From NCBI GenBank assembly GCA_964505555.1, contig CAZDIO010000102.1, positions 13,355 to 77,354 of the forward strand: a stretch of 64,000 nucleotides of DNA, given 5' to 3'. Numbering within the stretch: position 1 is the stretch's first letter; each line of letters starts with the position of its first letter. The position numbers were made by a program, and so were the translations under genes. This DNA is from an uncultured Bdellovibrionales bacterium (GTDB lineage: Bacteria > Bdellovibrionota_C > UBA2361 > SZUA-149 > CAZDIO01). Shown in pieces: positions 31,447-54,457 of the stretch. A model generated the notes under the pieces. The model was not told the DNA's origin. It saw nothing but the letters and a program-made list of their open reading frames with translations, and searched no databases.

Positions 31447-31485
31447 CTCCTAGCACTTCTCGTGCCAGGTTTTGTGATCAGCGTC

Positions 31486-33063: not shown

Positions 33064-33126
33064 TTGAACACAGAGTTTCACAGGGTTACACAGAGTAAAG
33101 ATTTTAAAATTCAACTCTGTGTTCAA
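33064..33126. repeat. Family A palindromic repeat, copy A1 (right arm shortened)
   Basis: ttgaacacagagtttcacagggttacacagagt aaagattttaaaattca actctgtgttcaa. The right arm lacks the internal gtaaccctgtgaaactct present in other copies. Confidence 0.8.
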
Positions 33127-36657: not shown

Positions 36658-38235
36658 CTAAACGCTACGATTCCTTTCTCGTTTTCTTTTCCAAGTTTCA
36701 AAGTCTACTACCGCAATTTTTTTTGCAAGCTCCTCACGAACACATCCTTCAACCGCTTCATGAAGACTTCTTCGATCAAGAGCGGTTTTTAAGCAGTTCA
36801 TCTTCTTTTCAACCTGATCATAGAGGTTTGAAAGAGACTCAGAAGAGAGTGTTTTTCGATAGCGATCGACTTCGGTAGAGAGGTATTCCTGATACTCTTT
36901 TTTCTCAACTGGATTGGCCTCTCCCCGCCCGCTAGAGATTGGGGCTTTTGGAAAGTCCCGCCCAGTATTTTTAAGGATTTTCTCTTCAAAACTCCGGGGA
37001 ATAATGAATTTATGTGGAGTTTCTACTGCCCGATAGAGAAAACCTACCCGATTTTTTGAGACTTTCGTATCATTTGTTTGCACAAGAAAATCGTAATAGG
37101 AGATGATTTTATCAACTTGTAAAAGTTCTGCGGCGTTTTTTTCACTGAGCAGCCGTTTTGCTTGCGAGAGATGAATGCCTCGCGAAAGCAGAGCTTCAAT
37201 GGCTCCTTGTCGTTGTGATTCTAGATCAGTAGAACTGCGTTGGGAGGAATCTTTTTGAAAAACAGGGGGCGAAGAAAGGATAAAGCTTCCTTGCTGCGTG
37301 TGATTTCTAGGAAGAGGGCTCTCTGTTTGCTGGAGATGTTTTTGAGATACGATCTCTTTTCCGGAATGAAAGCGCACAACGGTCTCTACGCCCCTACCTG
37401 CAAACTCATAACTTGAGAGAAACCCAAGCGCTTTTAACTCCTCGCACGCTGGTTCAATTTGTTGCTTAATCTGGGAGATGTATTGATAACTTCGAGAAAG
37501 TCCTAACTTCTCAAAGGCAAAGGTAACAAGTGGTTTTTCAATACTTGATTTGTAGTAAAAATGCTTATCAAGATACCGGTAGAGCCTTCGACTTACAGCA
37601 CTTCGAAGTGAGAAATAAAGGGTTAAATCAAGCTTTTTTATAAACCCTGATTTAAAAGAATGAAAAAGTGCCTCACTCCAAATAAAATAACTCTTTGAAG
37701 CCTCAGCCCCAGAGAGGGCTTTGTTCCCTCGCCCATCGTTTATTTCGTAGGCATCGATAATTCCGAAATTTCTTGTTTGATAGGCTTTTGAAGCATTATC
37801 AAAAAACGCATTTGCTGCCCGAATTCGAACCCCGCTTAAGCGATCAAGTGATTTTGTAAGGCGGGAGTAGCTTCGCCCTTCTGTGGTCCAGCGTAAGATT
37901 CCTAAAAGCTCATACCGGGTAAAATATACCTTTCGGTTTCGAAACCCTTGATCCATCGTTAACCGCATCAAGCCAAGAAGGACATCATCATCCGTAGCGG
38001 TGGGGAGTCCAAACTTGTCTGCCCCGGTAATAATCCACTGGCGTTCAATCACCTCCCCACTGGGGAGCCGTTGGTTGTCACGAAACTCAAGGGTTTTTAC
38101 CTTTGAGTTTGTGCGTGTCGAGAGAACCGCGAGGGGAAACTCTGCAAGGTTCATCTCATCACGTGAGGTAAGCACTACCTCGGATGAGGAGACTTCACGA
38201 TCTTCGGCTCTTTGTTGGTAGAGGGTTTGCTGCAT
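36658..38235 (-). CDS. Replication-initiator-like (RepA-type) protein
   Basis: 525 aa. N-terminus MNLAEFPLAVLSTR... resembles plasmid replication initiator A family N-termini. Basic C-terminus. Lies next to an AT-rich noncoding region and parAB. Assignment tentative. Confidence 0.4.
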   Translation of the reverse strand: MQQTLYQQRAEDREVSSSEVVLTSRDEMNLAEFPLAVLSTRTNSKVKTLEFRDNQRLPSGEVIERQWIITGADKFGLPTATDDDVLLGLMRLTMDQGFRNRKVYFTRYELLGILRWTTEGRSYSRLTKSLDRLSGVRIRAANAFFDNASKAYQTRNFGIIDAYEINDGRGNKALSGAEASKSYFIWSEALFHSFKSGFIKKLDLTLYFSLRSAVSRRLYRYLDKHFYYKSSIEKPLVTFAFEKLGLSRSYQYISQIKQQIEPACEELKALGFLSSYEFAGRGVETVVRFHSGKEIVSQKHLQQTESPLPRNHTQQGSFILSSPPVFQKDSSQRSSTDLESQRQGAIEALLSRGIHLSQAKRLLSEKNAAELLQVDKIISYYDFLVQTNDTKVSKNRVGFLYRAVETPHKFIIPRSFEEKILKNTGRDFPKAPISSGRGEANPVEKKEYQEYLSTEVDRYRKTLSSESLSNLYDQVEKKMNCLKTALDRRSLHEAVEGCVREELAKKIAVVDFETWKRKRERNRSV

Positions 38236-39130
38236 GAAAAAAAATGAAACAAAAAAATTTTAAATTAACTTCAAGTCGTTTGTTATTTTGGTACAACGTA
38301 CATCATAGTTCTTCAACAAGAAGTTTTTTTATAAGTACGTACGTTAGGAGAGAAATTATTCAATCTTTCTAGTAAGTTAAGCCAGAAAATTTCTTTCGAT
38401 TCCCGAATCTTTTGGGCTCAGATCACGATGGACTTGAAGTCAATTCACTTGAGCACTTATCTCATTTCATGAGATTTTTATTCTCCTGCCTAACTTTCTT
38501 ACTTCGACTCTCGACATTGTGAAACCAAAAGCGCGAGATTTTTATGTAAGGCTCTCTGGAGCCTCTAACATGAGTCAGATAGCCAAACATTCCGGAGAAA
38601 ACGGTAGGTGGTCACGGTCATTAAGTTAGTTCCTGTCCATAAAAGCCAATTTTGAGTCCAAGGTCGATTGAACGGCCACTACTTCTAAACTTACTCTGTG
38701 GTTTTATAAAATCTTCTTTCAGACCCTTAATGACCGTGGGTAAGAAACTCTATTTTAGTAAAGTCTCTTAGTTCATTACTCGAACCCTTATTTCAATACA
38801 CGCCTATTTGACCATTTTTGGTTATTCCATTTCACGAACAGCAGCCAAACAAAAACCACAAGATATTCTAACATATTGAAATTATTAATATAATCAGATA
38901 TTCGTGGTTTAATTGACCTCCAAAGATCGCATTATTCTGGGAATGTTCGAGCTTCGAAATAAGTACTGATCACGTTTATAAGCGAGCTTTTGAAAGATGA
39001 TTATTTCAAAGCACGCTACTTTTTGGCCACTAGGTAGGTTTCTTTACTGTTTGGAAGCTTTAGTTTAAACCAGTTATTGTTTAATTTAACCTCTGCCAAA
39101 ATCTCAACTCTTGAGTAACGAAGCTGTAAG
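38236..39130. other. About 0.9 kb AT-rich noncoding region between the rep-like gene and parA; candidate replication origin / partition site region
   Basis: No ORF over 60 aa. A-tracts present. Contains a 15-bp inverted repeat (gtcacggtcattaag / cttaatgaccgtg about 100 nt apart) and short direct repeats (agatattc ×2). Confidence 0.3.
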
Positions 39131-39913
39131 GTGGCCATGGCAAAAGTCTTTGCAATAGTGAATCAAAAGGGGGGAGTTGGAAAAACTACCACCGCTGCAA
39201 ATTTGGCCGCCGCGCTATCTGAGCGAGGTCAAAAAGTGCTTGTTATTGATCTTGATGCTCAAGCAAATCTCTCTGCTCATTTTGGAAGTTCCGTAGATGA
39301 TCAGAGTGAGCAGCTTACAATGTATGATGTGCTCAGGCACAACGCCCCGATTGAAAAAGCAATAATAAACCTCTCTTCGAACTTAAGTATCGTTCCTGCA
39401 AGCCTCCTACTAAGTGCTGCAGATTTAGAGCTTGGTGGTGTTATCGGTCGTGAGTTACTTCTTAAAAAAGCTCTTCAACCGGTAATTGATGACTATGATT
39501 ACACGATCATTGATTGCCCACCCTCACTGGGGATGCTCTCCCTCAATGGGCTTGTTGCTGCTTCACGAGTTATCGTTCCTGTTCAAAGTGAGTTTTTAGC
39601 CCTTCACGGCGTAAGGCAGCTTCTTGATACGATTGACCAGGTACGAAGTGCCTACAACCCCTTACTTGCTGTGGGTGGAGTTCTTCTCTGTCTTCATGAT
39701 TCAAGAAGGAGACTGGCGCGGAGTGTTGCCGATACGGTGCGCGAATATTTTGGAGATCTTGTTTTTGAAACTGTCATTCGCACAAACGTTGCCCTTGCTG
39801 AAGCACCTGCCCAGGGGGACTCAATTTTTCAATACGACCGCCGCTCAAGCGGTGCTGAAGATTATGCTAGCCTTGCAGAGGAGATACTAAGCCGTGGCAA
39901 AAAAGAAGGTTAA
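39131..39913 (+). CDS. parA: ParA/Soj-family partition ATPase
   Basis: 260 aa. Deviant Walker A NQKGGVGKTTT. Confidence 0.9.
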   Translation: MAMAKVFAIVNQKGGVGKTTTAANLAAALSERGQKVLVIDLDAQANLSAHFGSSVDDQSEQLTMYDVLRHNAPIEKAIINLSSNLSIVPASLLLSAADLELGGVIGRELLLKKALQPVIDDYDYTIIDCPPSLGMLSLNGLVAASRVIVPVQSEFLALHGVRQLLDTIDQVRSAYNPLLAVGGVLLCLHDSRRRLARSVADTVREYFGDLVFETVIRTNVALAEAPAQGDSIFQYDRRSSGAEDYASLAEEILSRGKKEG

Positions 39914-40814
39914 ATTCAGTGTAAACCCACTTCTTGGGGGACCAAGTCTTGCATCACGAGCAAAGATGGGGAGCCCTTATCGGGAGCTTTTAATCGACGA
40001 GATCGATTTTGATCCTGATCAACCGCGACGAGTATTTAATGAAGAGCGACTTCAAGAGCTCGCTGATTCAATTAAAGAACACGGAATCATCTCACCAATA
40101 CTTGTTAAAGTAACAGAAGGGGGAACCTATAAGCTTGTATCTGGAGAGAGAAGACTTCGTGCCTCAAAAATTGCTGGATTAGAATCGATCCCCGCAGTTA
40201 TTGAAGACGATGATAAAAGTAGTGATGTAACCCTTCCTAAGCAGCTTGTAGAAAATCTCCAACGAGAAGATCTCACCGTAATGGAGAGGGCGATCGCTAT
40301 TGGCCAACTACGAGATGCTTACAAATTGAGCATTCGTGAGATCTCCTCAAAGCTTTCCATTTCAAAAGGACTCGTTCAGAGAAGCCTTGAAGTTCTCGAT
40401 CTCCCAGACGATCTTCAAGCAGCGTTAATAAACGGTGCCTCAGAGACGAAGATTCTCGTTTTAGCGAAAGTTTCGAATCGTGAATTGAGAAAAGAATTTA
40501 TCGCTCAACTTGATAATTTCACCCGAGCACAACTTGAAGAAGAGGTAGATCGGGTTACGACACTCTTAAATGGCGACAAAGAAGAGGTGTACCACGGTGG
40601 TACACCTCGTAGTCGAAAAAATGGAAGAAATAAACTTTCCCCTCAAGATGAGCAGTTAATTAATGATTTAAAAAACAAACTAGGAACAAGAGTTTCTTTA
40701 ATGCGCAGTCGTGGCAAAGAGGGGCAGGGGAAGCTGATGATCGAGTTCTATTCAGATAACGATCTAAGCGAGATCTTTCGACGACTTTGTCGAACCGCTA
40801 GCGATTCTCTTTAA
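39894..40814 (+). CDS. parB: ParB/Spo0J-family partition protein (GTG start)
   Basis: 306 aa. ParB box ISPILVK...YKLVSGERRLRAS. 20-nt overlap with parA. Confidence 0.85.
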   Translation: MAKKKVKFSVNPLLGGPSLASRAKMGSPYRELLIDEIDFDPDQPRRVFNEERLQELADSIKEHGIISPILVKVTEGGTYKLVSGERRLRASKIAGLESIPAVIEDDDKSSDVTLPKQLVENLQREDLTVMERAIAIGQLRDAYKLSIREISSKLSISKGLVQRSLEVLDLPDDLQAALINGASETKILVLAKVSNRELRKEFIAQLDNFTRAQLEEEVDRVTTLLNGDKEEVYHGGTPRSRKNGRNKLSPQDEQLINDLKNKLGTRVSLMRSRGKEGQGKLMIEFYSDNDLSEIFRRLCRTASDSL

Positions 40815-42571: not shown

Positions 42572-43539
42572 GTTTTCCTAACACTCGGATGCGAAGACTA
42601 CGACAGAATATCGCTCTTCGTGCCCTTACGGAAGAAACGAAACTTTCAAGTAAGGATTTTATCGCTCCCCTTTTTATTGTTCCAGGAAGGGGAGTAAAAA
42701 AAGAGATCTCCTCGCTTGAGGGGCAGTTTCATCTAAGTGCTGATGCGGCTGTTGAAGAGGTGTATACGCTTAGGAAACTCGGGGTTAAATCGGTATTACT
42801 CTTTGGACTTCCTGAAAAAAAAGATGAGCGAGGGGAGGTAAGTTGTCTTCCCGATGGAGTAGTACAGCAAGCAATTAGTGCGATAAAGAAGGAAGTTCGT
42901 GAGGTGGCCATTATCGCTGACCTCTGTTTTTGTGAATACACAACCCATGGTCATTGCGGAATTATTGTTGATGGGGATGTGGATAATGATCTGACCTTGG
43001 AGATGACCGGAAAGCAGGCGATCTCCCTTGCTCGCGCTGGAGCGGACATTATCGCTCCATCGGGGATGATGGATGGGATGGTGCAAACGATCCGTTTAGC
43101 ACTGGATAAAGAACAATTTATAAACACGGCCATTATGAGCTACTCCGCTAAGTACTGCTCCTCTTTTTATGGGCCATTTCGAGAAGCGGTAGCCTCTTCC
43201 CCCTCTTTTGGGGACAGAAAAACGTATCAGATGAATCCTGCAAATAGCGAGGAAGCACTACGAGAAGTAGCTCTCGATCTGGAAGAGGGTGCTGATATTG
43301 TAATGGTAAAGCCAGCCCTCTCGTATCTGGATATTATTTCCCGAGTAAAAGAGAGATTTCATGTACCACTTGCTGCATACAACGTCAGTGGTGAGTATGC
43401 GATGGTGAAAGCCGCCGCAGAGAAAGGTCTTATTGATGGCGAAAAGGTAATGATCGAAACCCTCCTCTCTATAAAACGCGCCGGTGCAGATACGATCATC
43501 ACCTACTTTGCAAAGGAAGCAGCAACTTTTTTATCTTAG
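42568..43539 (+). CDS. hemB: Porphobilinogen synthase (delta-aminolevulinate dehydratase)
   Basis: 323 aa. RMRRLR near the N-terminus, active-site region around ADIIAPSGMMDG, and MVKPAL...Y motif. Confidence 0.9.
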   Translation: MSFPNTRMRRLRQNIALRALTEETKLSSKDFIAPLFIVPGRGVKKEISSLEGQFHLSADAAVEEVYTLRKLGVKSVLLFGLPEKKDERGEVSCLPDGVVQQAISAIKKEVREVAIIADLCFCEYTTHGHCGIIVDGDVDNDLTLEMTGKQAISLARAGADIIAPSGMMDGMVQTIRLALDKEQFINTAIMSYSAKYCSSFYGPFREAVASSPSFGDRKTYQMNPANSEEALREVALDLEEGADIVMVKPALSYLDIISRVKERFHVPLAAYNVSGEYAMVKAAAEKGLIDGEKVMIETLLSIKRAGADTIITYFAKEAATFLS

Positions 43540-43550
43540 AGGCTGTATCA

Positions 43551-43717
43551 AAACCTCAAGAAACCTTAGACTTAGGGTCTTTAAGCCTTCGACTTAAACT
43601 ACACTTAGCCTTGCTCCTGCACTTGCTAAGTGTAGTTTAAGGAGAGGTCGAAGTGAAAGTCTAAGATAGTGTATAAAAACTTTCAGAGCCTTTGATTTAG
43701 AAGGTTTTGATACAGCG
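43551..43717. repeat. About 170-nt compound palindrome (nested stems) immediately downstream of hemB
   Basis: Outer arms ggctgtatcaaaacc ... ggttttgatacagcg. Inner stem cttcgacttaaactacacttagc ... gctaagtgtagtttaa..gtcgaag. Confidence 0.7.
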
Positions 43718-43781
43718 TCCAAGTAAACACCTGTTTCTCTCTAGGGCGGGTTGGCTAAAGTACGTCGGGCTGTTTTTTTAA

Positions 43782-43869
43782 TGAACACAGAGTTTCACAG
43801 AGATCCACAGAGTAAAGAAAAAAGCTTTTAGATTTAACTCTGTGTAACCCTGTGAAACTCTGTGTTCAA
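43782..43869. repeat. Family A palindromic repeat, copy A2 (left arm variant agatc for ggtta)
   Basis: tgaacacagagtttcacagagatccacagagt aaagaaaaaagcttttagattta actctgtgtaaccctgtgaaactctgtgttcaa. Confidence 0.85.
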
Positions 43870-44020
43870 ACCTACTAAATGAAACGACGCTAGTTGAAAC
43901 CACCTCTATTTGACCCATATAAACCCTAGGGAACTTAAGCTTTAAATCATCGATAAAGATTATGAGGGCAATTCGTCTCTCATCACTATTACGAAATAGA
44001 CTTCAAATAGGGAGGCCATC

Positions 44021-45376
44021 ATGATCGTTACTGATTCACCATTTCGCACGCAATATAGCGCCAATAACGTTGCAATTCGAAACGGAGCAACAAGTACTAC
44101 GCCGGCGCAATTTAGTAATCTTTCTTTTCTTCGATCGACACCACCTTCTTTACCTTCAAGCAATCTCCTTGCCCCATCAAGTAGCGGAGGATTTGTTTCT
44201 CAAGTGCAGTCGATGCTGCAGCAAGTTTCGGTGCTGATGGATCTCATCGGTGCCGCAAGACAATCAGATCAAAGTGCTGGGGTTAGTCTCCTCGATGGGG
44301 CGAAACTCTTTTCTCAAAATGTTTCTCAGGAGCTTTTTAACCTTCAGACAAGAGGAGGTATCGGAGGGGTTTTTGATGCTGTTCCGACCTCTATAGATAG
44401 TCTTGGTACTGCCGCTCAACAGTACGTTCTTGGGAACCTCAAGCGAGAGTTTTTTGACGCAGTTGGTGAGGCGTTTGGGGTGGATGTTTCACAGCTTTCT
44501 GTAACAGATCTTGCCAATTTGGCTTATGAAAGCGTTTTTGGAGAGGGAACATCGCTCTCTAGTACCCTCTCAGATGGGGTGGCAGGAATCTTCTCCGGTC
44601 AGGATCCCTTTGTAGCAGGAGAACTTAGTGGAGAAATTGGTGGAGAAATAAGCACTGAAGTAGGCGGGGCAACTTCAGGAATTGGCCAATTTACAGGCGC
44701 TTTAGCAACCGCGTATTCTCTCTATGGAATAATTAATGACTGGGGAAAGAGCACCCCAGCCATGGGTGCGATGCGAGGTGCTACGGCTGGAGCGTACATC
44801 GGGAGTATTATTCCAGGAGTTGGAACTCTTATCGGAGGTGCCATCGGTGGGGTTGCGGGGGCGATCTCTGGATTGTTTCATAGTGGGAAGCATAAAAACC
44901 AGATTCAACGCGATCAGGTTCGAGAGTTTTTAAGAAATGCCCAAATTATCGATTCAGATAACTCCCTTCAGTTAGCAAATGGTGAACGTTTTGATATCGG
45001 AAAAGATGGAGGTGCTCGCTATCTTGGACTTGACGGAGTTGAGAGACGACCCTACGTGACTGACCCTTCAAATCCACTTACCGCTGAGGCGATAGGGCTT
45101 GTAAATCCGTTAGCAATAATTCTCACCGGAGGTGATCCTGGACTTTCTTCAGCTTTTGCAGGGTATTTTAGTAATGCCATCGTCAGTAACGCACAAGATC
45201 TCGAAGGCGTCCGCCAAAATGCCTTGGCGATATTCTCAAAATTTCAGGTTACCCCAGAGCAATTGATCGCTGGCTTAGAAAATCTTACTGCCTCCGGCAA
45301 AATCCCCCCAGAAGATTTTGCTGCATACGCAAACGGGGTAAGAACTCTCCTTGAAGGGTTTTCTTCACCTTCATAA
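44021..45376 (+). CDS. Hypothetical protein with central glycine-zipper hydrophobic segment; candidate secreted/translocator-like protein
   Basis: 451 aa, no signal peptide. Ser/Thr-rich N-terminus. Segment AGAYIGSIIPGVGTLIGGAIGGVAGAISGLF (GxxxG repeats). Flanked by family A repeats. Confidence 0.5.
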   Translation: MIVTDSPFRTQYSANNVAIRNGATSTTPAQFSNLSFLRSTPPSLPSSNLLAPSSSGGFVSQVQSMLQQVSVLMDLIGAARQSDQSAGVSLLDGAKLFSQNVSQELFNLQTRGGIGGVFDAVPTSIDSLGTAAQQYVLGNLKREFFDAVGEAFGVDVSQLSVTDLANLAYESVFGEGTSLSSTLSDGVAGIFSGQDPFVAGELSGEIGGEISTEVGGATSGIGQFTGALATAYSLYGIINDWGKSTPAMGAMRGATAGAYIGSIIPGVGTLIGGAIGGVAGAISGLFHSGKHKNQIQRDQVREFLRNAQIIDSDNSLQLANGERFDIGKDGGARYLGLDGVERRPYVTDPSNPLTAEAIGLVNPLAIILTGGDPGLSSAFAGYFSNAIVSNAQDLEGVRQNALAIFSKFQVTPEQLIAGLENLTASGKIPPEDFAAYANGVRTLLEGFSSPS

Positions 45377-45390
45377 GAAGCGTTAGATTA

Positions 45391-45479
45391 TTGAACACAG
45401 AGTTTCACAGGGTTACACAGAGTTTGAACTATCTTACTTATCCCACACTCTGTGTAACCCTGTGAAACTCTGTGTTCAA
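45391..45479. repeat. Family A palindromic repeat, copy A3 (followed by ccttccttttttgc extension)
   Basis: ttgaacacagagtttcacagggttacacagagt ttgaactatcttacttatcccac actctgtgtaaccctgtgaaactctgtgttcaa, then ccttccttttttgc. Confidence 0.9.
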
Positions 45480-45546
45480 CCTTCCTTTTTTGCTCAAAAA
45501 GTTTAAAAACATCTTTACTGCTATATCGAATAGTGATATTAATCTA

Positions 45547-45708
45547 GTGGTGATTCGATCGTACAAAAACATTGGCACACGTGATATTGCTGAGAATTCG
45601 AAAGCAGCGCGGCGACTGTTGCCGCAACCATTTAATGCTCAGTATCGCATTTGCTTTCTTTGGAATGGCATTGATGCTGACGCAGTTGAAATAGTGGATT
45701 ATCACTGA
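45547..45708 (+). pseudogene. higB: HigB-like toxin remnant (internally truncated RelE/ParE-superfamily killer protein)
   Basis: N-terminus VVIRSYKNIG... and C-terminus YRICFLWNGIDADAVEIVDYH match the HigB ends (…RVIFRFEDGDAYDVDYIDYH). The central ~40 residues are missing. The longer ORF from 45472 begins inside repeat A3. Confidence 0.5.
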
Positions 45709-45732
45709 GAGATTACAAAAAAGGGCTTCAGC

Positions 45733-46026
45733 ATGTTGAAACCTAGGCGTGTTATAGCAGTGCATCCTGGAGAGATGCTTGAAGAGGTTCTTAAACAGAA
45801 CAAGATTAGCCAATCTTCCCTTGCCGCTCATCTCGGAGTTACTCAAGCAAAGATCAACGAAATCTGTCGTGGTAAGCGAGGAGTGACGCCAGATATGGCG
45901 ATGAAGTTCGGTAAAGCTTTTGGACAGAGCCCAATGTTTTGGATAAATATCCAAAAAAATTGGGAGATGAGCCAGCTCGATGAATCTGATTACAAAGACA
46001 TACAACGGATAAAATGTCGTGCGTAG
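45733..46026 (+). CDS. higA: HigA-family antitoxin (XRE-type HTH)
   Basis: 97 aa. HPGEMLEEVLKQNKISQSSLAAHLGVTQAKINEICRGKRGVTPDMAMKFGKAFG matches the HigA/VapI HTH. Confidence 0.85.
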   Translation: MLKPRRVIAVHPGEMLEEVLKQNKISQSSLAAHLGVTQAKINEICRGKRGVTPDMAMKFGKAFGQSPMFWINIQKNWEMSQLDESDYKDIQRIKCRA

Positions 46027-46142
46027 AAAGCAAGTAAAAGGATTTTACTGGACTTCTGCTGATGCACGGCGACTGCATTTGCTCTCTATTTGAATCCCGA
46101 CTGAGGATCTGGAGAGTTTTATTAAATTACAGCTTATGATTA

Positions 46143-46232
46143 TTGAACACAGAGTTTCACAGGGTTACACAGAGTGTGGGAATAATTAAGATAATTTAAA
46201 CTCTGTGTAACCCTGTGAAACTCTGTGTTCAA
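46143..46232. repeat. Family A palindromic repeat, copy A4 (followed by ccttccctttttgc extension)
   Basis: ttgaacacagagtttcacagggttacacagagt gtgggaataattaagataatttaa actctgtgtaaccctgtgaaactctgtgttcaa, then ccttccctttttgc. Confidence 0.9.
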
Positions 46233-46482
46233 CCTTCCCTTTTTGCCTGTGGGCATGTGGAGTTACCGATTGCTCTAAGAAAAATCATTGATGAAGGCCA
46301 ATTAAGCTGAGGCAAATTGCCTCAGTAGATTCAAAATGCATCAGCGATCATTATTCTAACCCTCTGAAACTGTTCAGATCTTCTTTCACACCAAAGTTGG
46401 CATGACCTTGCAATAGAAACGGTAGGTTCTTGCTACAGGTTCTTTTTGTTTTTTAGTCAGAAAACTTAGCAAGGAGGACTTT

Positions 46483-47196
46483 GTGGTGAAAGGGACAACG
46501 GAAAAATTAACTGAAGAGCAGATTCCCCTCGTAATTGAAAATATTCTTTATGCAAAAAAACTGGCGAGGCAGTTTTATCAACAACGAAGCCACTTCGGTT
46601 TCGATGTTGAGGATTTTGAAGGCGCAGCATTGTTTGGATTATGTGACGCTGCAAGGAGGTTTGAGCCTGATAAGACACTTCATTTTAGAACATTTTCCTA
46701 TTTTCGCATTCGGGGTGCGATGTATGATCTGCTGCGACATGGGGGGGGAATTTCGAAGAAACACTTCAAGTGTTTCATTGAAAATCGAAATCAAACGGGA
46801 GAGGGGACAAAACCTCGAGCAGAGGAAGAAGGGAGCCTCCCCTATTCATTTGCAAGAACTGCTGAGGAGTTATCGAGCATTATTGCCACGATTGAAGAGA
46901 TCGATATCGCTGTGCATGTCAGCACGGACAGCGAGATTCCTGAACTCAGCTACGCACGAGACCTAAATCCTGAAGAGATCAATACCATTCGTGCAACCCG
47001 GTCCTATATTAGAAAACTTATCTCTCAACTTCCCACTGAACAACGAACCGTAATTGAACTTCGCTACTACAATGGCGCTACCTTTGATGAAATTAGCGCA
47101 AATCTCGGTGGGCACTCACGGAGTTGGGTTTCACGAACCCATGTTCGAGCTCTTGATAATTTGCGAGGGATGATTCTTAGCGAAAGGAGAGTGTAA
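46483..47196 (+). CDS. Sigma-70-family sigma factor, FliA/sigma-28-like
   Basis: 237 aa. Region 2 (FEGAALFGLCDAARRFEPDKTLHFRTFSYFRIRGAMYD) and region 4 HTH (VIELRYYNGATFDEISANLGGHSRSWVSRTHVRALDNLR). RBS AAGGAGGA. Stop overlaps the sctJ start (TAATG). Confidence 0.8.
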   Translation: MVKGTTEKLTEEQIPLVIENILYAKKLARQFYQQRSHFGFDVEDFEGAALFGLCDAARRFEPDKTLHFRTFSYFRIRGAMYDLLRHGGGISKKHFKCFIENRNQTGEGTKPRAEEEGSLPYSFARTAEELSSIIATIEEIDIAVHVSTDSEIPELSYARDLNPEEINTIRATRSYIRKLISQLPTEQRTVIELRYYNGATFDEISANLGGHSRSWVSRTHVRALDNLRGMILSERRV

Positions 47197-48131
47197 TGAC
47201 ATCCTCAAAATGGAAAGGAATTTTTCTTGCGCTCGTAGCGTTTTTTCAGGTCAGTTGTAAAGAGACCGTTCTTCATAACTTAGATGAGGTGCGAGCCAAT
47301 CAGGTAAAAGTAACACTAGAGAAACGAGGAATTACTGCGCAAAAGCTTTTTGAAGGGAGCGGATGGAGTATTCGAGTCAAGCGTGCTGACGAAACAGAGG
47401 CACTCTCGATTCTTGAAGAAAGCAGAGTTCTCAAACGGAATCTCCGAACCCCGATAGAACCACCAAAGGGGCTTATTCCAAGCCGAGAGGAACGAGCATC
47501 ATTTTCAGAACGGCAACTGGCGGCAAGTTTAGAAAGTACTCTTGAGCGCTTACCCTATGTGCTAGAAGCTCGAGTTCATCTGAACTTAAATGCCGAAGAG
47601 AACCTTCAAATGGTTTTGCCAAAAGAGGGCCATACGGGAAGTGCTCTGATTGTCACCGATGATCATATGCCTGATCATTTAGCAATTCAAAAATCTCAAG
47701 TACAACAACTCATTGCAGGAGCATCAGGAGTAAACCCACAATCAATCTCGGTAGTAATCGCCAAAGCAAGTGCTGAAAACTACGCAGAGCCACAGATCCA
47801 TAAAGTAGCAAAGCCAGTAGAGACGACGAAAAAAGATACTCCCTCCCATTCTCCATCGTGGATAAAAAAGCTGATAGTGCATGCTCGACAGTATCAAACA
47901 TTTTTAATCTATCTCGCTGGGGTATTAATTGCAGTTCTTGCACTCCGATTGATTTTTCGAAAAAACCCATTTCGAAGTGAGCAAACAATACCGAGTTTTC
48001 AAATGCCTCCTCTGAAGAACTCAAAAAATACCGTCTCCTCTGGTGTTCTGGTCAACGGTACCCAACACGGAAATGGCAGTCAGTTTAAACTGCAACCAAA
48101 CAAACAACATGAAACATTGGAGGTGTACTAA
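47196..48131 (+). CDS. sctJ: Type III secretion inner-membrane ring lipoprotein SctJ (YscJ/PrgK/CdsJ family)
   Basis: 311 aa. Signal plus Cys (FFQVSCKE), then LDEVRANQVKVTLEKRGITAQKL...ETEALSILEESRV (YscJ-like secretin/ring-building motif pair). Single C-terminal TM (FLIYLAGVLIAVLALRLIF). Confidence 0.75.
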   Translation: MTSSKWKGIFLALVAFFQVSCKETVLHNLDEVRANQVKVTLEKRGITAQKLFEGSGWSIRVKRADETEALSILEESRVLKRNLRTPIEPPKGLIPSREERASFSERQLAASLESTLERLPYVLEARVHLNLNAEENLQMVLPKEGHTGSALIVTDDHMPDHLAIQKSQVQQLIAGASGVNPQSISVVIAKASAENYAEPQIHKVAKPVETTKKDTPSHSPSWIKKLIVHARQYQTFLIYLAGVLIAVLALRLIFRKNPFRSEQTIPSFQMPPLKNSKNTVSSGVLVNGTQHGNGSQFKLQPNKQHETLEVY

Positions 48132-48132
48132 G

Positions 48133-48408
48133 ATGATGGCTTCTTCTTTAAATATCCATTGCTCACGGCGATGTGAATTGCTTCTCTGCTTAAGTTATCT
48201 CCTTACCCCAGAAGCAGTTACTTCCATCGCCTCAAAATTAGCAACCAATCGCGATCAAGCCGCGAGAAACCTTGCTCAGGCGATGATGTCACTCTCTCCT
48301 CAGTATGTACGAGACCTGAGTTTAAAAACACTTGCCAATGCCGGAATGAGTATCGGTAATTATAAAAACCAAACGCATGCTCACGGGGTAGCCTCGAGGA
48401 AGTTGTAA
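48133..48408 (+). CDS. Small T3SS-locus protein (hypothetical)
   Basis: 91 aa from ATG immediately after the sctJ stop. The longer ORF from 48043 overlaps sctJ. No motif. Confidence 0.3.
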   Translation: MMASSLNIHCSRRCELLLCLSYLLTPEAVTSIASKLATNRDQAARNLAQAMMSLSPQYVRDLSLKTLANAGMSIGNYKNQTHAHGVASRKL

Positions 48409-48409
48409 A

Positions 48410-49333
48410 ATGAAAGAGAACGACAACAATACGTTTGTTGCTGTAATCAGAGCAAAACTTCAAGCAGGGGGGCGCACTCTCGCATCAACGGAAAATGCAC
48501 CACTGCATACACTACGATTTCGGATGATGGCAAATCAATTTCTCTCTATTCTTTCTTCGTTACTTTCTTTACATCTTACAAAGGAAGTTCATATCTCACT
48601 TGATGAGTCATCAACCTTTCCTCGATCACCTGAAGAGGGGTGCGATGGAGAACAGGTGATCGTGAATCTTCGAGTGTATCATCAAAATATACAACTTGTT
48701 TTACCCGGAGAGCTTGTTCATGACCTTGGTGCTTACGTCCTTCATAAGATGCCAACAGCGGTAATCTCTTCTCTCACGAACGAAGAGATTACCGCTGTGA
48801 GTTTCTTAATCGCTTCAGTCCTTGCTGATCGAGCGCTCTCGAAACAACGAATCTACCTCTCTTCAGTGCACAAAAAATGTAACGAAGAAAAACAAGAGAC
48901 CTCAAAACGCGATCGAGAACAAAATCAGCAACTCTGTGTATCAGCCACGGTTGATAAGAGTCACTACCGAGTGCTCGTACGTATCCCCGAGGAGCTTGTT
49001 GGGCGTTTAGAAAGTTATGGGAAATTAATCTTTCATAGGGAACAAACAACACGTCTTCTTTCAAGGGTGTTTGCGCAGTGGTCGCTGCAACTTCGACTCA
49101 ACGTAGGATCGCTTCACGGTCTTACTGCGCTAAAAGAAGGTCAACGTTTTCCACTTACAGAGTCTACGGGGGCACTTTTTTCTCCAAGCCCTCTCTGTGG
49201 TGAAGAAGGGGTAGCGGTTGAAATACTTTCTGCAAGTATTCCTGGACTTTTAAAATTACGAATTAGGGGAGAAAAAGATTTATATCAACGCACTCAATGG
49301 AGGAATAATGACCAGAGAAGATGCCCACAGTAA
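48410..49333 (+). CDS. sctQ: SctQ-like protein, N-terminal part of a split cytoplasmic-ring/sorting-platform protein (contains a SpoA-like C-terminal segment)
   Basis: 307 aa. C-terminal LQLRLNVGSLHGLTALKEGQRFPL...VAVEILSASIPGLLKLRI fits the SpoA/FliN-fold pattern. Overlaps the next SpoA gene by 26 nt. Confidence 0.45.
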   Translation: MKENDNNTFVAVIRAKLQAGGRTLASTENAPLHTLRFRMMANQFLSILSSLLSLHLTKEVHISLDESSTFPRSPEEGCDGEQVIVNLRVYHQNIQLVLPGELVHDLGAYVLHKMPTAVISSLTNEEITAVSFLIASVLADRALSKQRIYLSSVHKKCNEEKQETSKRDREQNQQLCVSATVDKSHYRVLVRIPEELVGRLESYGKLIFHREQTTRLLSRVFAQWSLQLRLNVGSLHGLTALKEGQRFPLTESTGALFSPSPLCGEEGVAVEILSASIPGLLKLRIRGEKDLYQRTQWRNNDQRRCPQ

Positions 49334-49673
49334 TGAATTGTTTAGAGAATTTACAAATCACCATACCCAGACGATGAACCAAAATGGGGAATCGGCTCGT
49401 GAAATAAAGCGAGAAAGCGGCTCATTGCTTACATTGCAGCAAGCAAAATTTCTTTCAGAGATACAGGTTGGGCTTGATGTCGAGATCGGAAAACTCTCCA
49501 TCCCAGCAGATAAACTCATTGATCTCCTTCCTGGGCAAACATTTGAGTTTGAGTTTGATCCGCTTCTAGAGGTTTCGCTCTCACTGGGAGGAGAAAAGAT
49601 AGCAAAAGCTAAATTCATGCTTGATGGAGAGACGCTCTATCTTGAAGTGAGCTCAGTAAAAACCACTTTATGA
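49308..49673 (+). CDS. SpoA/FliN/SctQ-C domain protein (separate C-terminal SctQ gene)
   Basis: 121 aa. VGLDVEIGKLSIPADKLIDLLPGQTFEFEFDPLLEVSLSLGGEKIAKAKFMLDGETLYLEV is the classic SpoA domain. Confidence 0.7.
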   Translation: MTREDAHSNELFREFTNHHTQTMNQNGESAREIKRESGSLLTLQQAKFLSEIQVGLDVEIGKLSIPADKLIDLLPGQTFEFEFDPLLEVSLSLGGEKIAKAKFMLDGETLYLEVSSVKTTL

Positions 49674-49768
49674 CAAAACCGATCGGAAACCATTGATGGA
49701 AATAAACGATAATACGTACGAGACCTAAAAACTGTTGTGAATTAATTGAATTAATAAGGAGAAATAAC

Positions 49769-50071
49769 ATGTCAGATGTAGCCTCGGCGCTTTTTAATAT
49801 CGGAAGTGTTGTGCGTGAAACCGCAAGTTACTTACCAGAACCTGCAACGCAAGGCGTTAGTATGTTTTCTGACGTTATGGATATCGTAAAAAGCCTCACC
49901 GGTAATGGTGTTGGTGGAGTTCCTACCGAGATCGGCGGGGACTTTATGGAACTTCTTGAATTGCAGATTCAAACTCAGCTTGAGCTTCAGACGGTATCAA
50001 TGGTGTCAAACGTTGAGAAGTCTGAACACGAATCAAAGATGGCTGCGATTCGAAACGTTCGCGTAAACTAA
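49769..50071 (+). CDS. Small T3SS-associated protein, needle/inner-rod (SctF/SctI)-like candidate
   Basis: 100 aa, helical. C-terminus ...KMAAIRNVRVN. Position between sctQ and sctV. RBS AAGGAGA. Confidence 0.3.
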   Translation: MSDVASALFNIGSVVRETASYLPEPATQGVSMFSDVMDIVKSLTGNGVGGVPTEIGGDFMELLELQIQTQLELQTVSMVSNVEKSEHESKMAAIRNVRVN

Positions 50072-50099
50072 AACAAGAAAATTAGATTGGAGAAATACT

Positions 50100-50417
50100 A
50101 TGGCCGTATCAAGTGTAACCACCGCTGCACCTCAAACAGCCGAAGGAAAAGCAGCAAAGAGTGAAGGTGAAGATAAAAAGGAGCGCACCTCTCAGGTGAA
50201 CCAATGGGGAAAAGAGATCCTTGATTTAAAAACCTCAAATGCGCGTCTTCTTGAGATCGTTGAAGCAGCAACAAAAGAGGCAAATGATAGCCCCTGGGTG
50301 ATGAACATGATTGAAAAGTTCATCGGTCAACGGGCGGTAAAGGGTGCCGCTGTTTCAAACATGATTCAAGCAATCATGGAAACGATGAAACGAATCGCTA
50401 ATAATATTGGGCGTTAG
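50100..50417 (+). CDS. Small T3SS-associated protein, needle/inner-rod (SctF/SctI)-like candidate
   Basis: 105 aa. C-terminus VSNMIQAIMETMKRIANNIGR resembles needle-family C-termini (…IIQNFR-like). RBS GGAGAAA. Confidence 0.3.
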   Translation: MAVSSVTTAAPQTAEGKAAKSEGEDKKERTSQVNQWGKEILDLKTSNARLLEIVEAATKEANDSPWVMNMIEKFIGQRAVKGAAVSNMIQAIMETMKRIANNIGR

Positions 50418-50428
50418 TTTCTGATTCC

Positions 50429-52507
50429 ATGAGGCAGCACGCCAAAATACGCGATATTTTACTCCCTATCGCTGTTGTTGCGGTAGTAGGGATGATGATT
50501 TTTCCTTTACCATCAGGAGTGCTCGATGCGCTCCTGATGGTAAATATCGCGTTTTCTTTAGTTCTTCTGGTAAGTTCTGTTTATCTTTCTGAACCAAGAC
50601 ACTTTACCTCCCTTCCAGCGATCCTTCTCCTCTCCACTCTTTTTCGCTTAGGATTAAACGTTTCAACAACACGACAGATTCTTGGTCATGCCGAGGCACC
50701 TGAGATTATTGTTGCCTTTGGTTCTTTTGTTGTAACTGGAAGTTTAATTGTCGGTGCGGTGGTATTTTTGATTATCACCGTAGTGCAGTTTCTAGTGATC
50801 ACCAAGGGGGCAGAGAGAGTTGCTGAGGTTGCCGCGAGATTTACCCTCGATGCGATGCCTGGAAAACAGATGGCGATTGATGCTGATGTGCGTTCAGGTT
50901 CCATTAGTGTTGAAGAGGCAAAGGAGCGAAGGCTTGAATTACAACAGGAATCAAAACTCTACGGTGCCCTTGATGGGGCGATGAAGTTTATCAAAGGGGA
51001 CGCAATTGCTGGTTTGATCATCATCGTTATTAATATCACCGCAGGCCTTGCTGTGGGGGTAACACAGATGGGGCTTAGTTTTTCAGAGGCTCTTCATAAG
51101 TACACCCTCTATACGATTGGTGATGGCCTTGTTTCACAACTTCCGGCACTTCTTGTCTCTGTGGCAGCGGGGATTGTAATTACCAGGGTTGAAAATAAAA
51201 GTGGGGCTTTTCTCGGAAGAGATATCTTTGTTCAACTCGGTGCAGAACCTCAAGCCGTGGCCACCAGTGGAGGAGTGCTTCTTCTTCTCTCACTTGTTCC
51301 TGCGTTGCCAGGAATTCCTTTTTTTGTTGTTGGGGTAATTCTTCTTTCTCTTGCAAGAAAGACAAGTCTTCGACAGAAAAGCTCTGAACAGGGAAGGACA
51401 GATTCAGAGTTTCGACCAAAGGTATTTTCTCCACTCGTTTTAGTTCTCTCCCCCGGAGCTGCCGTTCTTCTTCAACGGCTCGGCACCCTTCCCAAGGCGA
51501 TTCATCAATTACGAAGCGAGATGTTTCAAAAATGGGGGGTGATTGTTCCCGATGTCCAATTTGATCTAGAAAAAGGGGAGAGTGAGATCGCTCTCTGGGT
51601 TACTCTTCATGGAGTGCAAGTTGATTCGCTTCGTGGAGATGAAAAAGATTCTGGAGTTTTTGTTGAGAAAACTATTCAATGCTTACAACAGTCCATTGAA
51701 GCTCATCTTTCTGAACTCATCGATGATACGCAAACAAGAATGCTTCTTGAGGTTCATCAAAGCGTTGCCGAGGATCTGATCAATAGTGTCATTCCTGAGA
51801 TGTTGAGTATTACGGCGCTCACGACAATTCTTCGGCAGTTAGTTATTGAGGGGATCCATATTCGTCAGATGCGTTCGATCCTCCAAGCCGTAGCAGAATC
51901 TCATCTTCGCGAGCAGGAGATGAGCCTTTCACTCCCGAGTGCTTCCGGTGCAAATTCACAACGTCTGCAACTTTTAGGGAAGAAAGAAGGAGCGACAAGG
52001 CAAGGACGAGAGCTCCTTGCTGATGTGAGAATCTCTTTAAAGCGAGTTATTTCAAAACAGATCACGGATGATAATTGGAATTTACAAGCCTTCATCTGTG
52101 CGCCTCTTTTGGAACAGATATTTTCCTCTCCCGTTGCCCTTGGAGCGCCCATTGAACCGGGAATACGTGAAAGCATTTTGAATCAGATTAATAAAGCATT
52201 CTCTACACAAAATACCCCCACAAAAGTTCTCTTAACTTCTAAACAGTCACGAACAAATCTCTTCAACCTGATTCGTTTTGACTGTCCAATGGTCTCAGTT
52301 ATCGCAATTGATGAGCTGGCTCCTGAAGTGACGCTCAGTATTCTTGGGGAGATAAAATTAGAAACTGGAGAGACAGCAGACAGTGAGGAGCAGGAAGGGG
52401 GCAAGAGTAAGAAGATTCAGGAAGAGACTCAAGCTAAACCGGAGCGGAGAGTTTTTCGAAATGTTTCTGAAGTGAGAACAAAAGATTCTCAGAAGATCGC
52501 AGCATAA
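50429..52507 (+). CDS. sctV: Type III secretion export-gate protein SctV (LcrD/InvA/CdsV family; injectisome-type rather than FlhA)
   Basis: 692 aa. FLVITKGAERVAEVAARFTLDAMPGKQMAIDAD, AMKFIKGDAIAGLIIIVIN and TIGDGLVSQLPALL match the LcrD/YscV variants (SLDAMPGKQM, FVKGDAIAGLIII, GDGMVSQVPALL) more closely than the FlhA variants (VLDGMPGKQM, FVRGDAIAGILIM). Confidence 0.85.
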   Translation: MRQHAKIRDILLPIAVVAVVGMMIFPLPSGVLDALLMVNIAFSLVLLVSSVYLSEPRHFTSLPAILLLSTLFRLGLNVSTTRQILGHAEAPEIIVAFGSFVVTGSLIVGAVVFLIITVVQFLVITKGAERVAEVAARFTLDAMPGKQMAIDADVRSGSISVEEAKERRLELQQESKLYGALDGAMKFIKGDAIAGLIIIVINITAGLAVGVTQMGLSFSEALHKYTLYTIGDGLVSQLPALLVSVAAGIVITRVENKSGAFLGRDIFVQLGAEPQAVATSGGVLLLLSLVPALPGIPFFVVGVILLSLARKTSLRQKSSEQGRTDSEFRPKVFSPLVLVLSPGAAVLLQRLGTLPKAIHQLRSEMFQKWGVIVPDVQFDLEKGESEIALWVTLHGVQVDSLRGDEKDSGVFVEKTIQCLQQSIEAHLSELIDDTQTRMLLEVHQSVAEDLINSVIPEMLSITALTTILRQLVIEGIHIRQMRSILQAVAESHLREQEMSLSLPSASGANSQRLQLLGKKEGATRQGRELLADVRISLKRVISKQITDDNWNLQAFICAPLLEQIFSSPVALGAPIEPGIRESILNQINKAFSTQNTPTKVLLTSKQSRTNLFNLIRFDCPMVSVIAIDELAPEVTLSILGEIKLETGETADSEEQEGGKSKKIQEETQAKPERRVFRNVSEVRTKDSQKIAA

Positions 52508-52528
52508 TCTTAGCGCGCTGTATGGGAG

Positions 52529-53146
52529 GTGAAAATGAATATATCTTATAGAAAAATCTCTCTTCATCATTTAGCACTCTGGAGTTTTGTCTGTTTCATT
52601 CTTTTCTTGAGTACTGGCTGTATTTACCGAAATAAAAATAGCCTTACGGCTCATGAAGCCGTAACTCGGGAAACAAAGATGAAGTCACTCCTTGCTTTTA
52701 GTGTTTCACAGCTTCGAATCGGAGATGAAGTGGCACTTGATCGCGCCTATGCAACGCTTGAGCTTGCACGAGAGTTAGACCCAAACGATGCACGAGTGTT
52801 TGATGGTTTAGGAAGTGTGGAATGGCGTCGCGAAGGGTATAAGTTAGCGGAGTTCTACTTTAAAAAAGCGGTATCTCTTGATCCTAACTATTCTCGTCCG
52901 TATGCACATCTTTCGCTTGTTGCAGAAAGAAATGGTGATTATCAGGCAGCAAAAGAGCTCCTTCTAAAATCTCTTGAACTTAATCCTCTTAATTACCGGG
53001 CAAGAAACAACTACGCCGCCCTTCTTGTTCGTTACGGAAATCAAACAAGTAATGAACAAACGGCGTACTATGAGTTTCTAAAAGTTGCCCGAGGTGCTTC
53101 AAAAGAAGATCCCGTTCTTCAGTATAATCTAGGTCGGTTTGAGTAG
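52529..53146 (+). CDS. TPR-repeat lipoprotein
   Basis: 205 aa. Signal plus LSTGC lipobox. At least three TPR units (AYATLELARELDPNDARVF..., AEFYFKKAVSLDPNYSRPY..., AKELLLKSLELNPLNYRAR...). Confidence 0.6.
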   Translation: MKMNISYRKISLHHLALWSFVCFILFLSTGCIYRNKNSLTAHEAVTRETKMKSLLAFSVSQLRIGDEVALDRAYATLELARELDPNDARVFDGLGSVEWRREGYKLAEFYFKKAVSLDPNYSRPYAHLSLVAERNGDYQAAKELLLKSLELNPLNYRARNNYAALLVRYGNQTSNEQTAYYEFLKVARGASKEDPVLQYNLGRFE

Positions 53147-53183
53147 GCGTTATCCGTAGTCGCAGGAGGAACCTGATTTTTAA

Positions 53184-53271
53184 TTGAACACAGAGTTTCA
53201 CAGGGTTACACAGAGTAAAGAGAAGAGATTTTAAATTTAACTCTGTGTAACCCTGTGAAACTCTGTGTTCA
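53184..53271. repeat. Family A palindromic repeat, copy A5
   Basis: ttgaacacagagtttcacagggttacacagagt aaagagaagagattttaaattta actctgtgtaaccctgtgaaactctgtgttca. Confidence 0.9.
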
Positions 53272-53329
53272 TACCAGAAGCTAAATGGACCTACTCTAGC
53301 CTTACAATTCAAAACTTGCTAAGTATTCA

Positions 53330-54337
53330 TTGGAAATCCCTCTTCGGATATTTATGCAAGATCCTCAATCAACGATAAATGTTTCTTCAATAGATTACTC
53401 GCCAACGGTAGGGATAGTAATTATCAATTATAACTGCGCTCCTTATACGCTAGACTGCCTGCGCACAGTAGAGAAGCTTTCCTATACAAATTATTTTGTA
53501 GTGATCATTGATAACAACTCCCCAGATCTCTCCGGCTACTACTTACAACAAGCGCTCAAAGATAAGCGGGTAACCGTCATTATCAACCCTGAAAACTGTG
53601 GCTTCGGGGCAGGAAACAATATCGGTATTCGTCATGCGTTAGAAGGGGAGGCAGAGTATATCTGGCTTTTAAATGCAGATACCTTTGTTCATCCTGAGGC
53701 ACTCTCCCAACTTGTAAAACAAGCAAACGAATATCCTGAGGTTGGAGCGTTTGGAAGTAAGGTTCTGTATGAGGAAGAACCTTTGTCTCCTAAAAAAGAA
53801 GAGGGAAAACCGATAATATGGAGTGCTGGAGCCTCGATAGATTTTTCTAAAGAAGAAGTAAAGATGTTTGGTTCCCATGAAGAAGATCGAGGGCAGCACG
53901 ATCAGCTCCGCGAGTGCGAATACATTCCCGGATGCTCACTTTTCTTTCCTGCAAAGGTGATCTCAGAAGTTGGCTACCTGCCGGAAGAATACTTTATGTA
54001 TTTTGAAGAAACAGAGTGGTGTACGAGGATGAGAAAAAAGCATTTCAAACTGCTCTATGTTCCAGAAAGTGTAGTTTGGCACCGGTTTCAAGATAACAAA
54101 ATGCAAACCCCTTTTGGAGTGTATTATTACAACAGAAATAATCGTTACTTCTGGTTTCGTCAGGGAGATATCTTTAAAAAAATCGCGATGATTGTGCGAA
54201 CACTTTTTAAAGACCTTCCCCGTGCACAGAGAGCGTTTAAAAAAGCCCCCGATGAAGCTTCTCGCGAAATCTTCTCTGCTCACCGAGCTAGCTGTCTTGA
54301 TTTTCTTTTTGGGAGGTTTGGGAAGAGACGGTATTGA
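53330..54337 (+). CDS. Glycosyltransferase family 2
   Basis: 335 aa. VGIVIINYNCAPYTLDCL...VVIIDNNSPD, DxD-like NADTF, and GCSLFFPAKV. Start may be downstream of 53330. Confidence 0.8.
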   Translation: MEIPLRIFMQDPQSTINVSSIDYSPTVGIVIINYNCAPYTLDCLRTVEKLSYTNYFVVIIDNNSPDLSGYYLQQALKDKRVTVIINPENCGFGAGNNIGIRHALEGEAEYIWLLNADTFVHPEALSQLVKQANEYPEVGAFGSKVLYEEEPLSPKKEEGKPIIWSAGASIDFSKEEVKMFGSHEEDRGQHDQLRECEYIPGCSLFFPAKVISEVGYLPEEYFMYFEETEWCTRMRKKHFKLLYVPESVVWHRFQDNKMQTPFGVYYYNRNNRYFWFRQGDIFKKIAMIVRTLFKDLPRAQRAFKKAPDEASREIFSAHRASCLDFLFGRFGKRRY

Positions 54338-54379: not shown

Positions 54380-54457
54380 TGAACACAGAGTTCAACAGAG
54401 GAAAGAAAACAAACCAATAATTTTAACTCTGTGAAACCCTGTGAAACTCTGTGTTCA
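54380..54457. repeat. Family A palindromic repeat, copy A6 (diverged)
   Basis: gaacacagagttcaacagagg aaagaaaacaaaccaataatttta actctgtgaaaccctgtgaaactctgtgttca. Confidence 0.75.

Follow-up and report, generated by a model that had tools for sequence, protein, structure and literature searches.

A 451-residue protein encoded near a type III secretion operon belongs to an unannotated glycine-zipper family found in phage virion modules and on Bdellovibrionota chromosomes

We analyzed a stretch of 64,000 nucleotides (the window) from an uncultured Bdellovibrionales bacterium (GenBank assembly GCA_964505555.1, contig CAZDIO010000102.1, positions 13,355 to 77,354 of the forward strand), in which an open reading frame (ORF) for a protein of 451 amino acids (aa) lies between two hairpin repeats and upstream of genes of a type III secretion system (T3SS). 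The first-pass annotation of this DNA had proposed the protein as a candidate secreted translocator or effector. We found that it is a member of an unannotated family which combines a known module, the glycine zipper, with a C-terminal domain unmatched in the databases searched, and which occurs in phage virion modules as well as on Bdellovibrionota chromosomes. The locus is composed of the following features, given in positions of the window:

43782–43868 (no strand): upstream 87-nt hairpin repeat with 32–35-nt arms and a 17-nt loop
44010–44015 (+): GGGAGG Shine-Dalgarno sequence (ribosome-binding site), 5 nt before the ATG, by reading of the sequence
44021–45376 (+): 451-aa ORF with ATG start, encoding the family member with glycine zipper and C-terminal domain
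44021–44191 (+): aa 1–57, rich in S/T/P/N/Q, modeled without secondary structure and mostly at low predicted local distance difference test (pLDDT) values, no signal peptide
44192–44755 (+): aa 58–245, variable and acidic, helices at 58–173 followed by a G/E/S-rich low-confidence linker, weak PHROG tape-measure and tail-lysin matches
44756–44875 (+): aa 246–285, two-helix glycine-zipper hairpin (helices 246–261 and 267–285, P265-G266 turn), glycines at i, i+4 at least 90% conserved
44888–45355 (+): aa 290–445, conserved alpha/beta C-terminal domain, block-mean pLDDT ~89–98
45392–45478 (no strand): downstream 87-nt hairpin repeat, beginning 16 nt past the stop codon

The description of the ORF given in the first-pass annotation held up in all parts. 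The reading frame has its own ribosome-binding site, and no hydrophobic, signal-like stretch is present at the N-terminus (among the first 36 aa no 12-aa window scores above -0.05). Serine (22%), threonine (10%) and proline (10%) are indeed abundant in the first 60 aa. The summed fraction of S, T, P, N and Q in the first 50 aa is 0.54, whereas 44 further window ORFs have 0.25 ± 0.06. The glycine-rich motif AGAYIGSIIPGVGTLIGGAIGGVAGAISGLF comprises aa 256–286 and represents the only strongly hydrophobic stretch of the protein: the best 19-aa Kyte-Doolittle windows (1.61) are all located inside aa 260–285, and the second-best score of 1.43 belongs to a helix within the C-terminal domain. Upstream of the ORF a sigma-70 scan found no promoter; by eye a candidate TTGAAA-18-TATAAA was noticed at 43894–43923. 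A sigma-28-like element (TAAA-N14-17-CGATAA) was found neither by scanning nor by eye in the same region.

A word-indexed search returned just five relatives of the protein. We therefore used an exhaustive profile search, which retrieved 3235 representatives at E≤1e-3, 416 of them at E≤1e-30. Conservation in this family is concentrated in aa ~231–447, the N-terminal half being variable. Among 148 family members the glycines at positions 253, 257, 261, 268, 272, 276 and 280 are conserved in at least 90%. Within the C-terminal domain, alignment A4 shows no variation at K290, R297 and D298, and Q294, R301, D329, N385 and N400 (alignments A3 and A4) as well as S389 (A3) are nearly invariant. A hydrophobic N-terminus is absent in 144 of the 145 members starting with methionine. 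An AlphaFold2 model built from 6 sequences was unusable (mean pLDDT 47.6); with 148 sequences the C-terminal domain was modeled at the high confidence listed above, and the hairpin was modeled as two helices.

Neither the family nor its C-terminal domain corresponds to an annotated one. When 107 members were scanned against Pfam, Gly-zipper models matched 39 and 28 of them (E≤1e-3) and no Pfam family covered the C-terminal domain. Searches of Pfam, PDB and BFVD likewise retrieved no match for this domain of ~155 aa. The window protein itself reaches 20.9, 18.8 and 15.5 bits with PF13488 (Gly-zipper_Omp), PF13441 (Gly-zipper_YMGG) and PF13436 (Gly-zipper_OmpA), below the gathering cut-offs of 25, 28.9 and 27, respectively. 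It resembles these families of small outer-membrane lipoproteins (SlyB/Pcp) in its two-helix hairpin with (G/A)xxxG on both helices. Unlike them it lacks a lipoprotein signal, and they in turn lack its 245-aa N-terminal region and its 155-aa C-terminal domain. Judged from the sequence the protein thus works like the Pfam Gly-zipper families without curated membership, the motif being clearly present and conserved. Identities suggested by Pfam, NCBIfam, PHROGs and PADLOC, including LeoB over aa 239–306, were all rejected as matches at the level of the glycine zipper, and no known non-secreted family was among them. A sequence profile search of PDB gave only marginal matches, the best being a Gly-rich segment of an OmpA-family protein (6x65_N). 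In addition, a metagenomic protein of 795 aa with dynamin/GTPase domains (P0353; PF01926, PF00350) matches profile positions 28–218, corresponding to the helical region and the zipper. Together with the LeoB match of the window protein in PADLOC this makes the zipper-containing segment seem common to LeoB/DUF3482-type dynamin-like proteins.

The profile-based search also revealed two further subfamilies of ~400 and ~515 aa on contigs reaching at most 25–38 kb. The proteins encoded there align to almost the entire length of the family profile. The loci examined are phage genomes, with the family gene located in the structural module. On the contigs of P0341 and P0278 (29–36 kb) the family gene directly follows a SU10_adaptor-like gene; a major head protein is encoded upstream and a lytic transglycosylase (SLT) protein of 690–768 aa downstream. 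A 510-aa virion protein is also found downstream of the family gene in the phage loci, and further virion structural proteins are present. The arrangement MCP..p224-adaptor-[family]-p510-p313-p394-SLT, MCP being the major capsid protein, recurs in more than 20 loci from IMG/VR and metagenomes. Across these loci the capsid proteins are 65–98% identical while the family gene diverges strongly. The loci L016–L036 and L042–L048 form a coherent group of uncultured podophage-like genomes, ~26–36 kb in size where complete, with capsid proteins in the same range of identity. Two other contigs look like further phage lineages carrying the family gene: L040, whose genes for terminase, portal and head are of another type, and L024, an IMG/VR viral contig with a head-closure gene. 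In one member (P0219, L054 6241–7698) an SLT domain at aa 2–131 is fused to the core of glycine zipper and C-terminal domain; its gene ends a run of unannotated, possibly structural genes on the same strand and adjoins RecT/YqaJ.

The second group of homologues is chromosomal. All ten matches among species-representative genomes belong to Bdellovibrionota, Oligoflexia or unclassified metagenome-assembled genomes (MAGs); the Bdellovibrionota include predators. In a neighbor-joining tree of the core, calculated without support values, the window protein is placed in a single chromosomal clade apart from the phage clades, and this clade is the nearest one for 137 of the 148 top representatives. 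An all-against-all ORF comparison of 12 loci revealed no neighbor shared by the chromosomal homologues beside the family gene itself. The neighboring genes are ordinary cellular ones, e.g. those for RtcB, AspRS, GreA or a radical-SAM enzyme. Within 10 kb of the copies in about 11 chromosomal loci we found no match to phage marker proteins or to the T3SS proteins of the window. The only match of a phage SLT domain in the window (31486–32490) belongs to an unrelated SLT gene and was rejected as a phage marker beside the 451-aa ORF. The two groups differ at the N-terminus as well. The phage-type motif (..AYYAWLTSNGFPH..AYDQTT.IFG.PKTPE..) is missing from the chromosomal clade, which carries a polar low-complexity segment instead; the fraction of S, T, P, N and Q in the first 50 aa is 0.46 ± 0.08 in 52 members of the chromosomal type vs 0.36 ± 0.04 in the phage type.

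On balance we lean towards reading the 451-aa protein as a stand-alone member of a chromosomal, Bdellovibrionota-specific clade in a family of the phage envelope-penetration type, with a hairpin that inserts into membranes. By analogy, architecture and setting of the phage members are those of podophage ejection (pilot) proteins such as T7 gp14-gp15-gp16, P22 gp7-gp20-gp16 and SU10 gp20-24. Ejection proteins are soluble in the virion, contain predicted transmembrane segments, diverge fast and have a lytic transglycosylase as partner or fusion (PMC8954989). The phage homologues are likewise encoded in the structural module upstream of an SLT protein, family members have a latent membrane-spanning segment without a signal peptide, and P0219 is fused to an SLT domain as is T7 gp16. 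The faster divergence compared to the capsid, visible in the split into proteins of ~400 and ~515 aa, also agrees with the divergence described there. Unlike the known ejection proteins the copy in the window is encoded on a chromosome and has no phage genes in its vicinity.

Drawing on this analogy and on glycine-zipper hairpins in general, we picture the following mechanism. Lacking a Sec signal, the protein would be synthesized in the cytoplasm and remain soluble owing to the marginal hydrophobicity of its Gly-rich hairpin. Upon contact with a membrane this hairpin would insert and might oligomerize via its GxxxG faces, acting as a pore or an anchor in its target membrane. The C-terminal domain would thereby be held at the membrane surface, with K290, R297 and R301 forming a basic collar. 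In the phage members such an insertion would serve envelope penetration. The chromosomal clade, in which the phage-type N-terminal motif would have been replaced by the polar segment, may represent a membrane-active factor that was co-opted, or else a membrane protein resident in the cell. The gene would have moved from phage to chromosome.

Several points weigh against this interpretation. The family is without an experimentally studied member. Similarity in sequence or fold to any characterized ejection protein was not detected, and the PHROG matches of the window protein are weak and centered on the zipper. These cover aa 111–293, i.e. helical segment and zipper, and point to tail-associated lysins and tape-measure proteins (phrog_1047 and phrog_167; 8e-8 and 2e-7, respectively); minor tail and tape-measure proteins are also among the weak top matches in BFVD. 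In contrast to the window protein, the proteins matched are 1250–1550 aa long and are matched only in part, the C-terminal domain remains uncovered, and the two phage members compared to PHROGs (P0341, P0278) had no match. When the window protein and one phage member were used as tblastn queries, 50,697 isolated phage genomes gave no match either. In T7 and SU10 a nozzle or fiber takes the slot directly behind the adaptor, so that position alone is insufficient to identify an ejection protein. The clade of chromosomal homologues, which is large and diverse, might serve the cell in a way that has nothing to do with phages, and a midpoint-rooted neighbor-joining tree does not fix the direction of transfer. 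Finally, the basic residues on both sides of the hairpin fit a resident inner-membrane hairpin equally well.

This last point leads to an alternative that we consider unlikely, namely a resident inner-membrane protein whose hairpin is inserted co-translationally with both terminal domains in the cytoplasm, in a cellular role such as envelope or stress functions. The distribution of charges (K243 and R252 before the hairpin; K290, K292, R297 and R301 after it) follows the positive-inside rule, and a stand-alone chromosomal gene with its own ribosome-binding site, non-mobile neighborhoods in L001 and L005 and a large, conserved clade are what one would expect of such a protein. However, the hairpin is very rich in glycine and only marginally hydrophobic (Kyte-Doolittle 1.6). 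In addition, the virion modules of phages encode full-length homologues, and packaging would be difficult there for a protein inserted constitutively into a membrane. The SLT fusion of P0219 points to an action in a periplasm.

We consider it improbable that the protein is a substrate of the T3SS or of the flagellar T3SS, with the polar disordered N-terminus as export signal and the hairpin as part of a translocator or pore-forming effector. As annotated in the first pass, the ORF does precede T3SS genes. They belong to an operon (46483–54337) that starts 1.1 kb downstream of the 451-aa ORF and encodes, in this order, a sigma factor, an SctJ lipoprotein, proteins of ~90 aa and ~280–300 aa, a FliN-like protein, two proteins of ~100 aa, SctV, a TPR protein and a GT2 glycosyltransferase. 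Its recognizable T3SS-related genes are located as follows:

46483: FliA/WhiG-like sigma factor
47196: SctJ
49308: SctQ/FliN-like gene
50429: SctV
52529–53146: TPR protein (class II-like chaperone)

The window SctV scores about equally with SctV and FlhA models, under both cut-offs, and the proteins closest to it come from Bdellovibrionota/Oligoflexia MAGs. The same gene order is found in three further loci (L051, L052, L053) and thus, with the window, in at least four Bdellovibrionota-type genomes; two of the three further loci also keep additional genes downstream. No ATPase, secretin, export-gate component (SctRSTU) or translocator is annotated in the flanks, 8–12 kb downstream of SctV and ~4–6 kb upstream of the sigma gene. 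The sigma-headed SctJ/SctV operon may represent an undescribed T3SS variant.

Several observations would suit a T3SS substrate. Like the translocators SctE/SctB (YopB/YopD, IpaB/IpaC) the protein has no Sec signal and combines a polar N-terminus with a helical region and, behind it, a hydrophobic hairpin; the polarity of the N-terminus extends across the chromosomal clade. The operon includes a TPR chaperone-like gene and has no recognizable translocators. Family gene and operon are found together in at least two genomes, that of the window and GCA_046328905.1. A route of flagellar export also exists, as shown by the flagellin gene of the window. This gene (30396–31259, minus strand) encodes Flagellin_N and Flagellin_C domains, and a sigma-54-type element (TGGCAC-N5-GTGCT) was noticed by eye ~190 nt upstream of it (31453–31467); the organism is therefore probably flagellated besides carrying the SctJ/SctV operon.

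Against this stands that the proximity is confined to the window genome. We found no family member within 10 kb of the operon in L051 and L052 (hmmsearch of six-frame translations and gene lists) and none within 8 kb in L053 (called-gene list only). Nor did the search for homologues beside T3SS loci, proposed in the first-pass annotation, retrieve any: the T3SS proteins of the window had no match in 50 homologue loci. The genes upstream of the sigma gene differ among the window, L051, L052 and L053. As they differ and no family gene was found near the operon of the relatives, the adjacency in the window is local, and it coincides with a synteny breakpoint holding repeat elements and a toxin-antitoxin remnant. 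What lies between ORF and operon is a pair of degenerate HigB and intact HigA together with a third hairpin. In GCA_046328905.1, a Bdellovibrionota genome, the operon is located on contig 1 (3.26 Mb) and the family gene on contig 2 (1.87 Mb). Shared ancestry could account for the co-occurrence in two genomes, which alone is no argument for a functional link. The TPR gene is situated 7 kb from the 451-aa ORF, unlike a translocator gene beside its chaperone gene, and is followed by the GT2 glycosyltransferase gene. Scans against Pfam and NCBIfam at E≤1 yielded no translocator or effector family, only glycine-zipper and other non-translocator matches below threshold. Polar N-termini are not diagnostic, no sigma-28-type promoter was found upstream, and homologues are genes of phage structural modules. 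The T3SS assignment of the 451-aa protein is thus not supported. From the proposal of a secreted translocator or effector we retain the signal-less polar N-terminus and the conserved hairpin, which probably inserts into membranes, and discard the link to the T3SS, which was based on position only. It would be a long shot that a Bdellovibrionota lineage has co-opted a phage penetration protein, equipped it with a new polar export signal and delivers it, possibly via the sigma-headed T3SS, into the membrane of prey or host.

Very improbable, finally, is an antibacterial glycine-zipper pore-forming toxin delivered by another route, in the manner of T6SS or T7SS (type VI and type VII secretion system) effectors or bacteriocins. 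The likely source lineage with its predators and the variable N-terminal half of the family would fit such a toxin; however, conservation resides in its C-terminal part, whereas polymorphic toxins usually show the opposite layout. No adjacent immunity gene is conserved among the homologues of the 12-locus comparison, no T6SS, T7SS or T1SS (type I secretion system) genes were found near the homologues examined, and the Pfam lists of L001 and L005 contain no secretion-system genes. The glycine zipper is reported to be needed for membrane translocation of the Agrobacterium T6SS effector Tde1 (PMC10240207) and for toxicity of the Streptococcus T7SS effector TelE (PMC10434224). The likeness to these signal-less delivered proteins, whose zipper appears to serve entry into or permeabilization of the target membrane, is limited to the zipper: the window protein has no LXG or trafficking domain, immunity gene or T6SS/T7SS genes.

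The hairpins on both sides of the ORF, reported in the first-pass annotation as members of one family, are copies of a dispersed repeat. Both have arms of 32–36 nt that are 89–97% complementary. Further full copies are located at 46144–46231 and 53185–53271, and a 32-nt arm probe gave a single match each at 33065–33096 (with a shortened partner) and 54426–54457 (with a diverged partner). Altogether the window contains 10 arm matches, whereas chance would give 0. Sequence conservation concerns the 32-nt arms TGAACACAGAGTTTCACAGGGTTACACAGAGT; the loops of ~17–24 nt vary, and the sites are always intergenic. As the repeats occupy many intergenic gaps, their flanking position is not specific to the 451-aa gene. 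None of the 53 related loci, among them the syntenic T3SS loci, contains the repeat, which therefore looks like a REP/MITE-like palindrome (repetitive extragenic palindrome/miniature inverted-repeat transposable element) of ~87 nt that is specific to the window genome or its lineage. An Rfam search of 43400–46600 gave only sub-threshold matches of the hairpins to miRNA precursors, which we rejected; they are consistent with generic long hairpins.

Other elements were noticed in the surroundings. Directly after hemB a second, different palindromic element (43535–43723) shows a nested structure, in which a perfect hairpin with 17-nt arms (43593–43641) lies between 22-nt terminal inverted repeats that are separated by 145 nt. 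The region 45472–46026 encodes the HigA antitoxin (TIGR02607, 82.8 bits), preceded by an ORF of 78 aa that was matched by no family model. The end of this ORF (..YRICFLWNGIDADAVEIVDYH) resembles the C-terminus of HigB toxins; the middle of the toxin is seemingly missing, and the start overlaps with the hairpin repeat. The 78-aa ORF is probably a decayed toxin beside the intact antitoxin. Further upstream, a plasmid-type replication initiator (PF10134 RPA, 525 aa, minus strand) adjoins ParA and ParB (36658–40814). This set is surrounded by housekeeping genes (isocitrate dehydrogenase, polyprenyl synthase, hemD, hemB), and the region could represent an integrated element, a chromid or the origin of a secondary replicon.

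Our analysis removes a tempting annotation of the 451-aa gene as T3SS translocator as unsupported. In its place stands a sizeable unannotated family comprising hundreds to thousands of sequence clusters, with a confidently modeled C-terminal domain that is unmatched so far. Should the phage members prove to be ejection proteins, the family would constitute a new class of DNA-delivery component. The chromosomal clade would then be a candidate example of a penetration module of phages that was adopted by a phylum with bacterial predators among its members.

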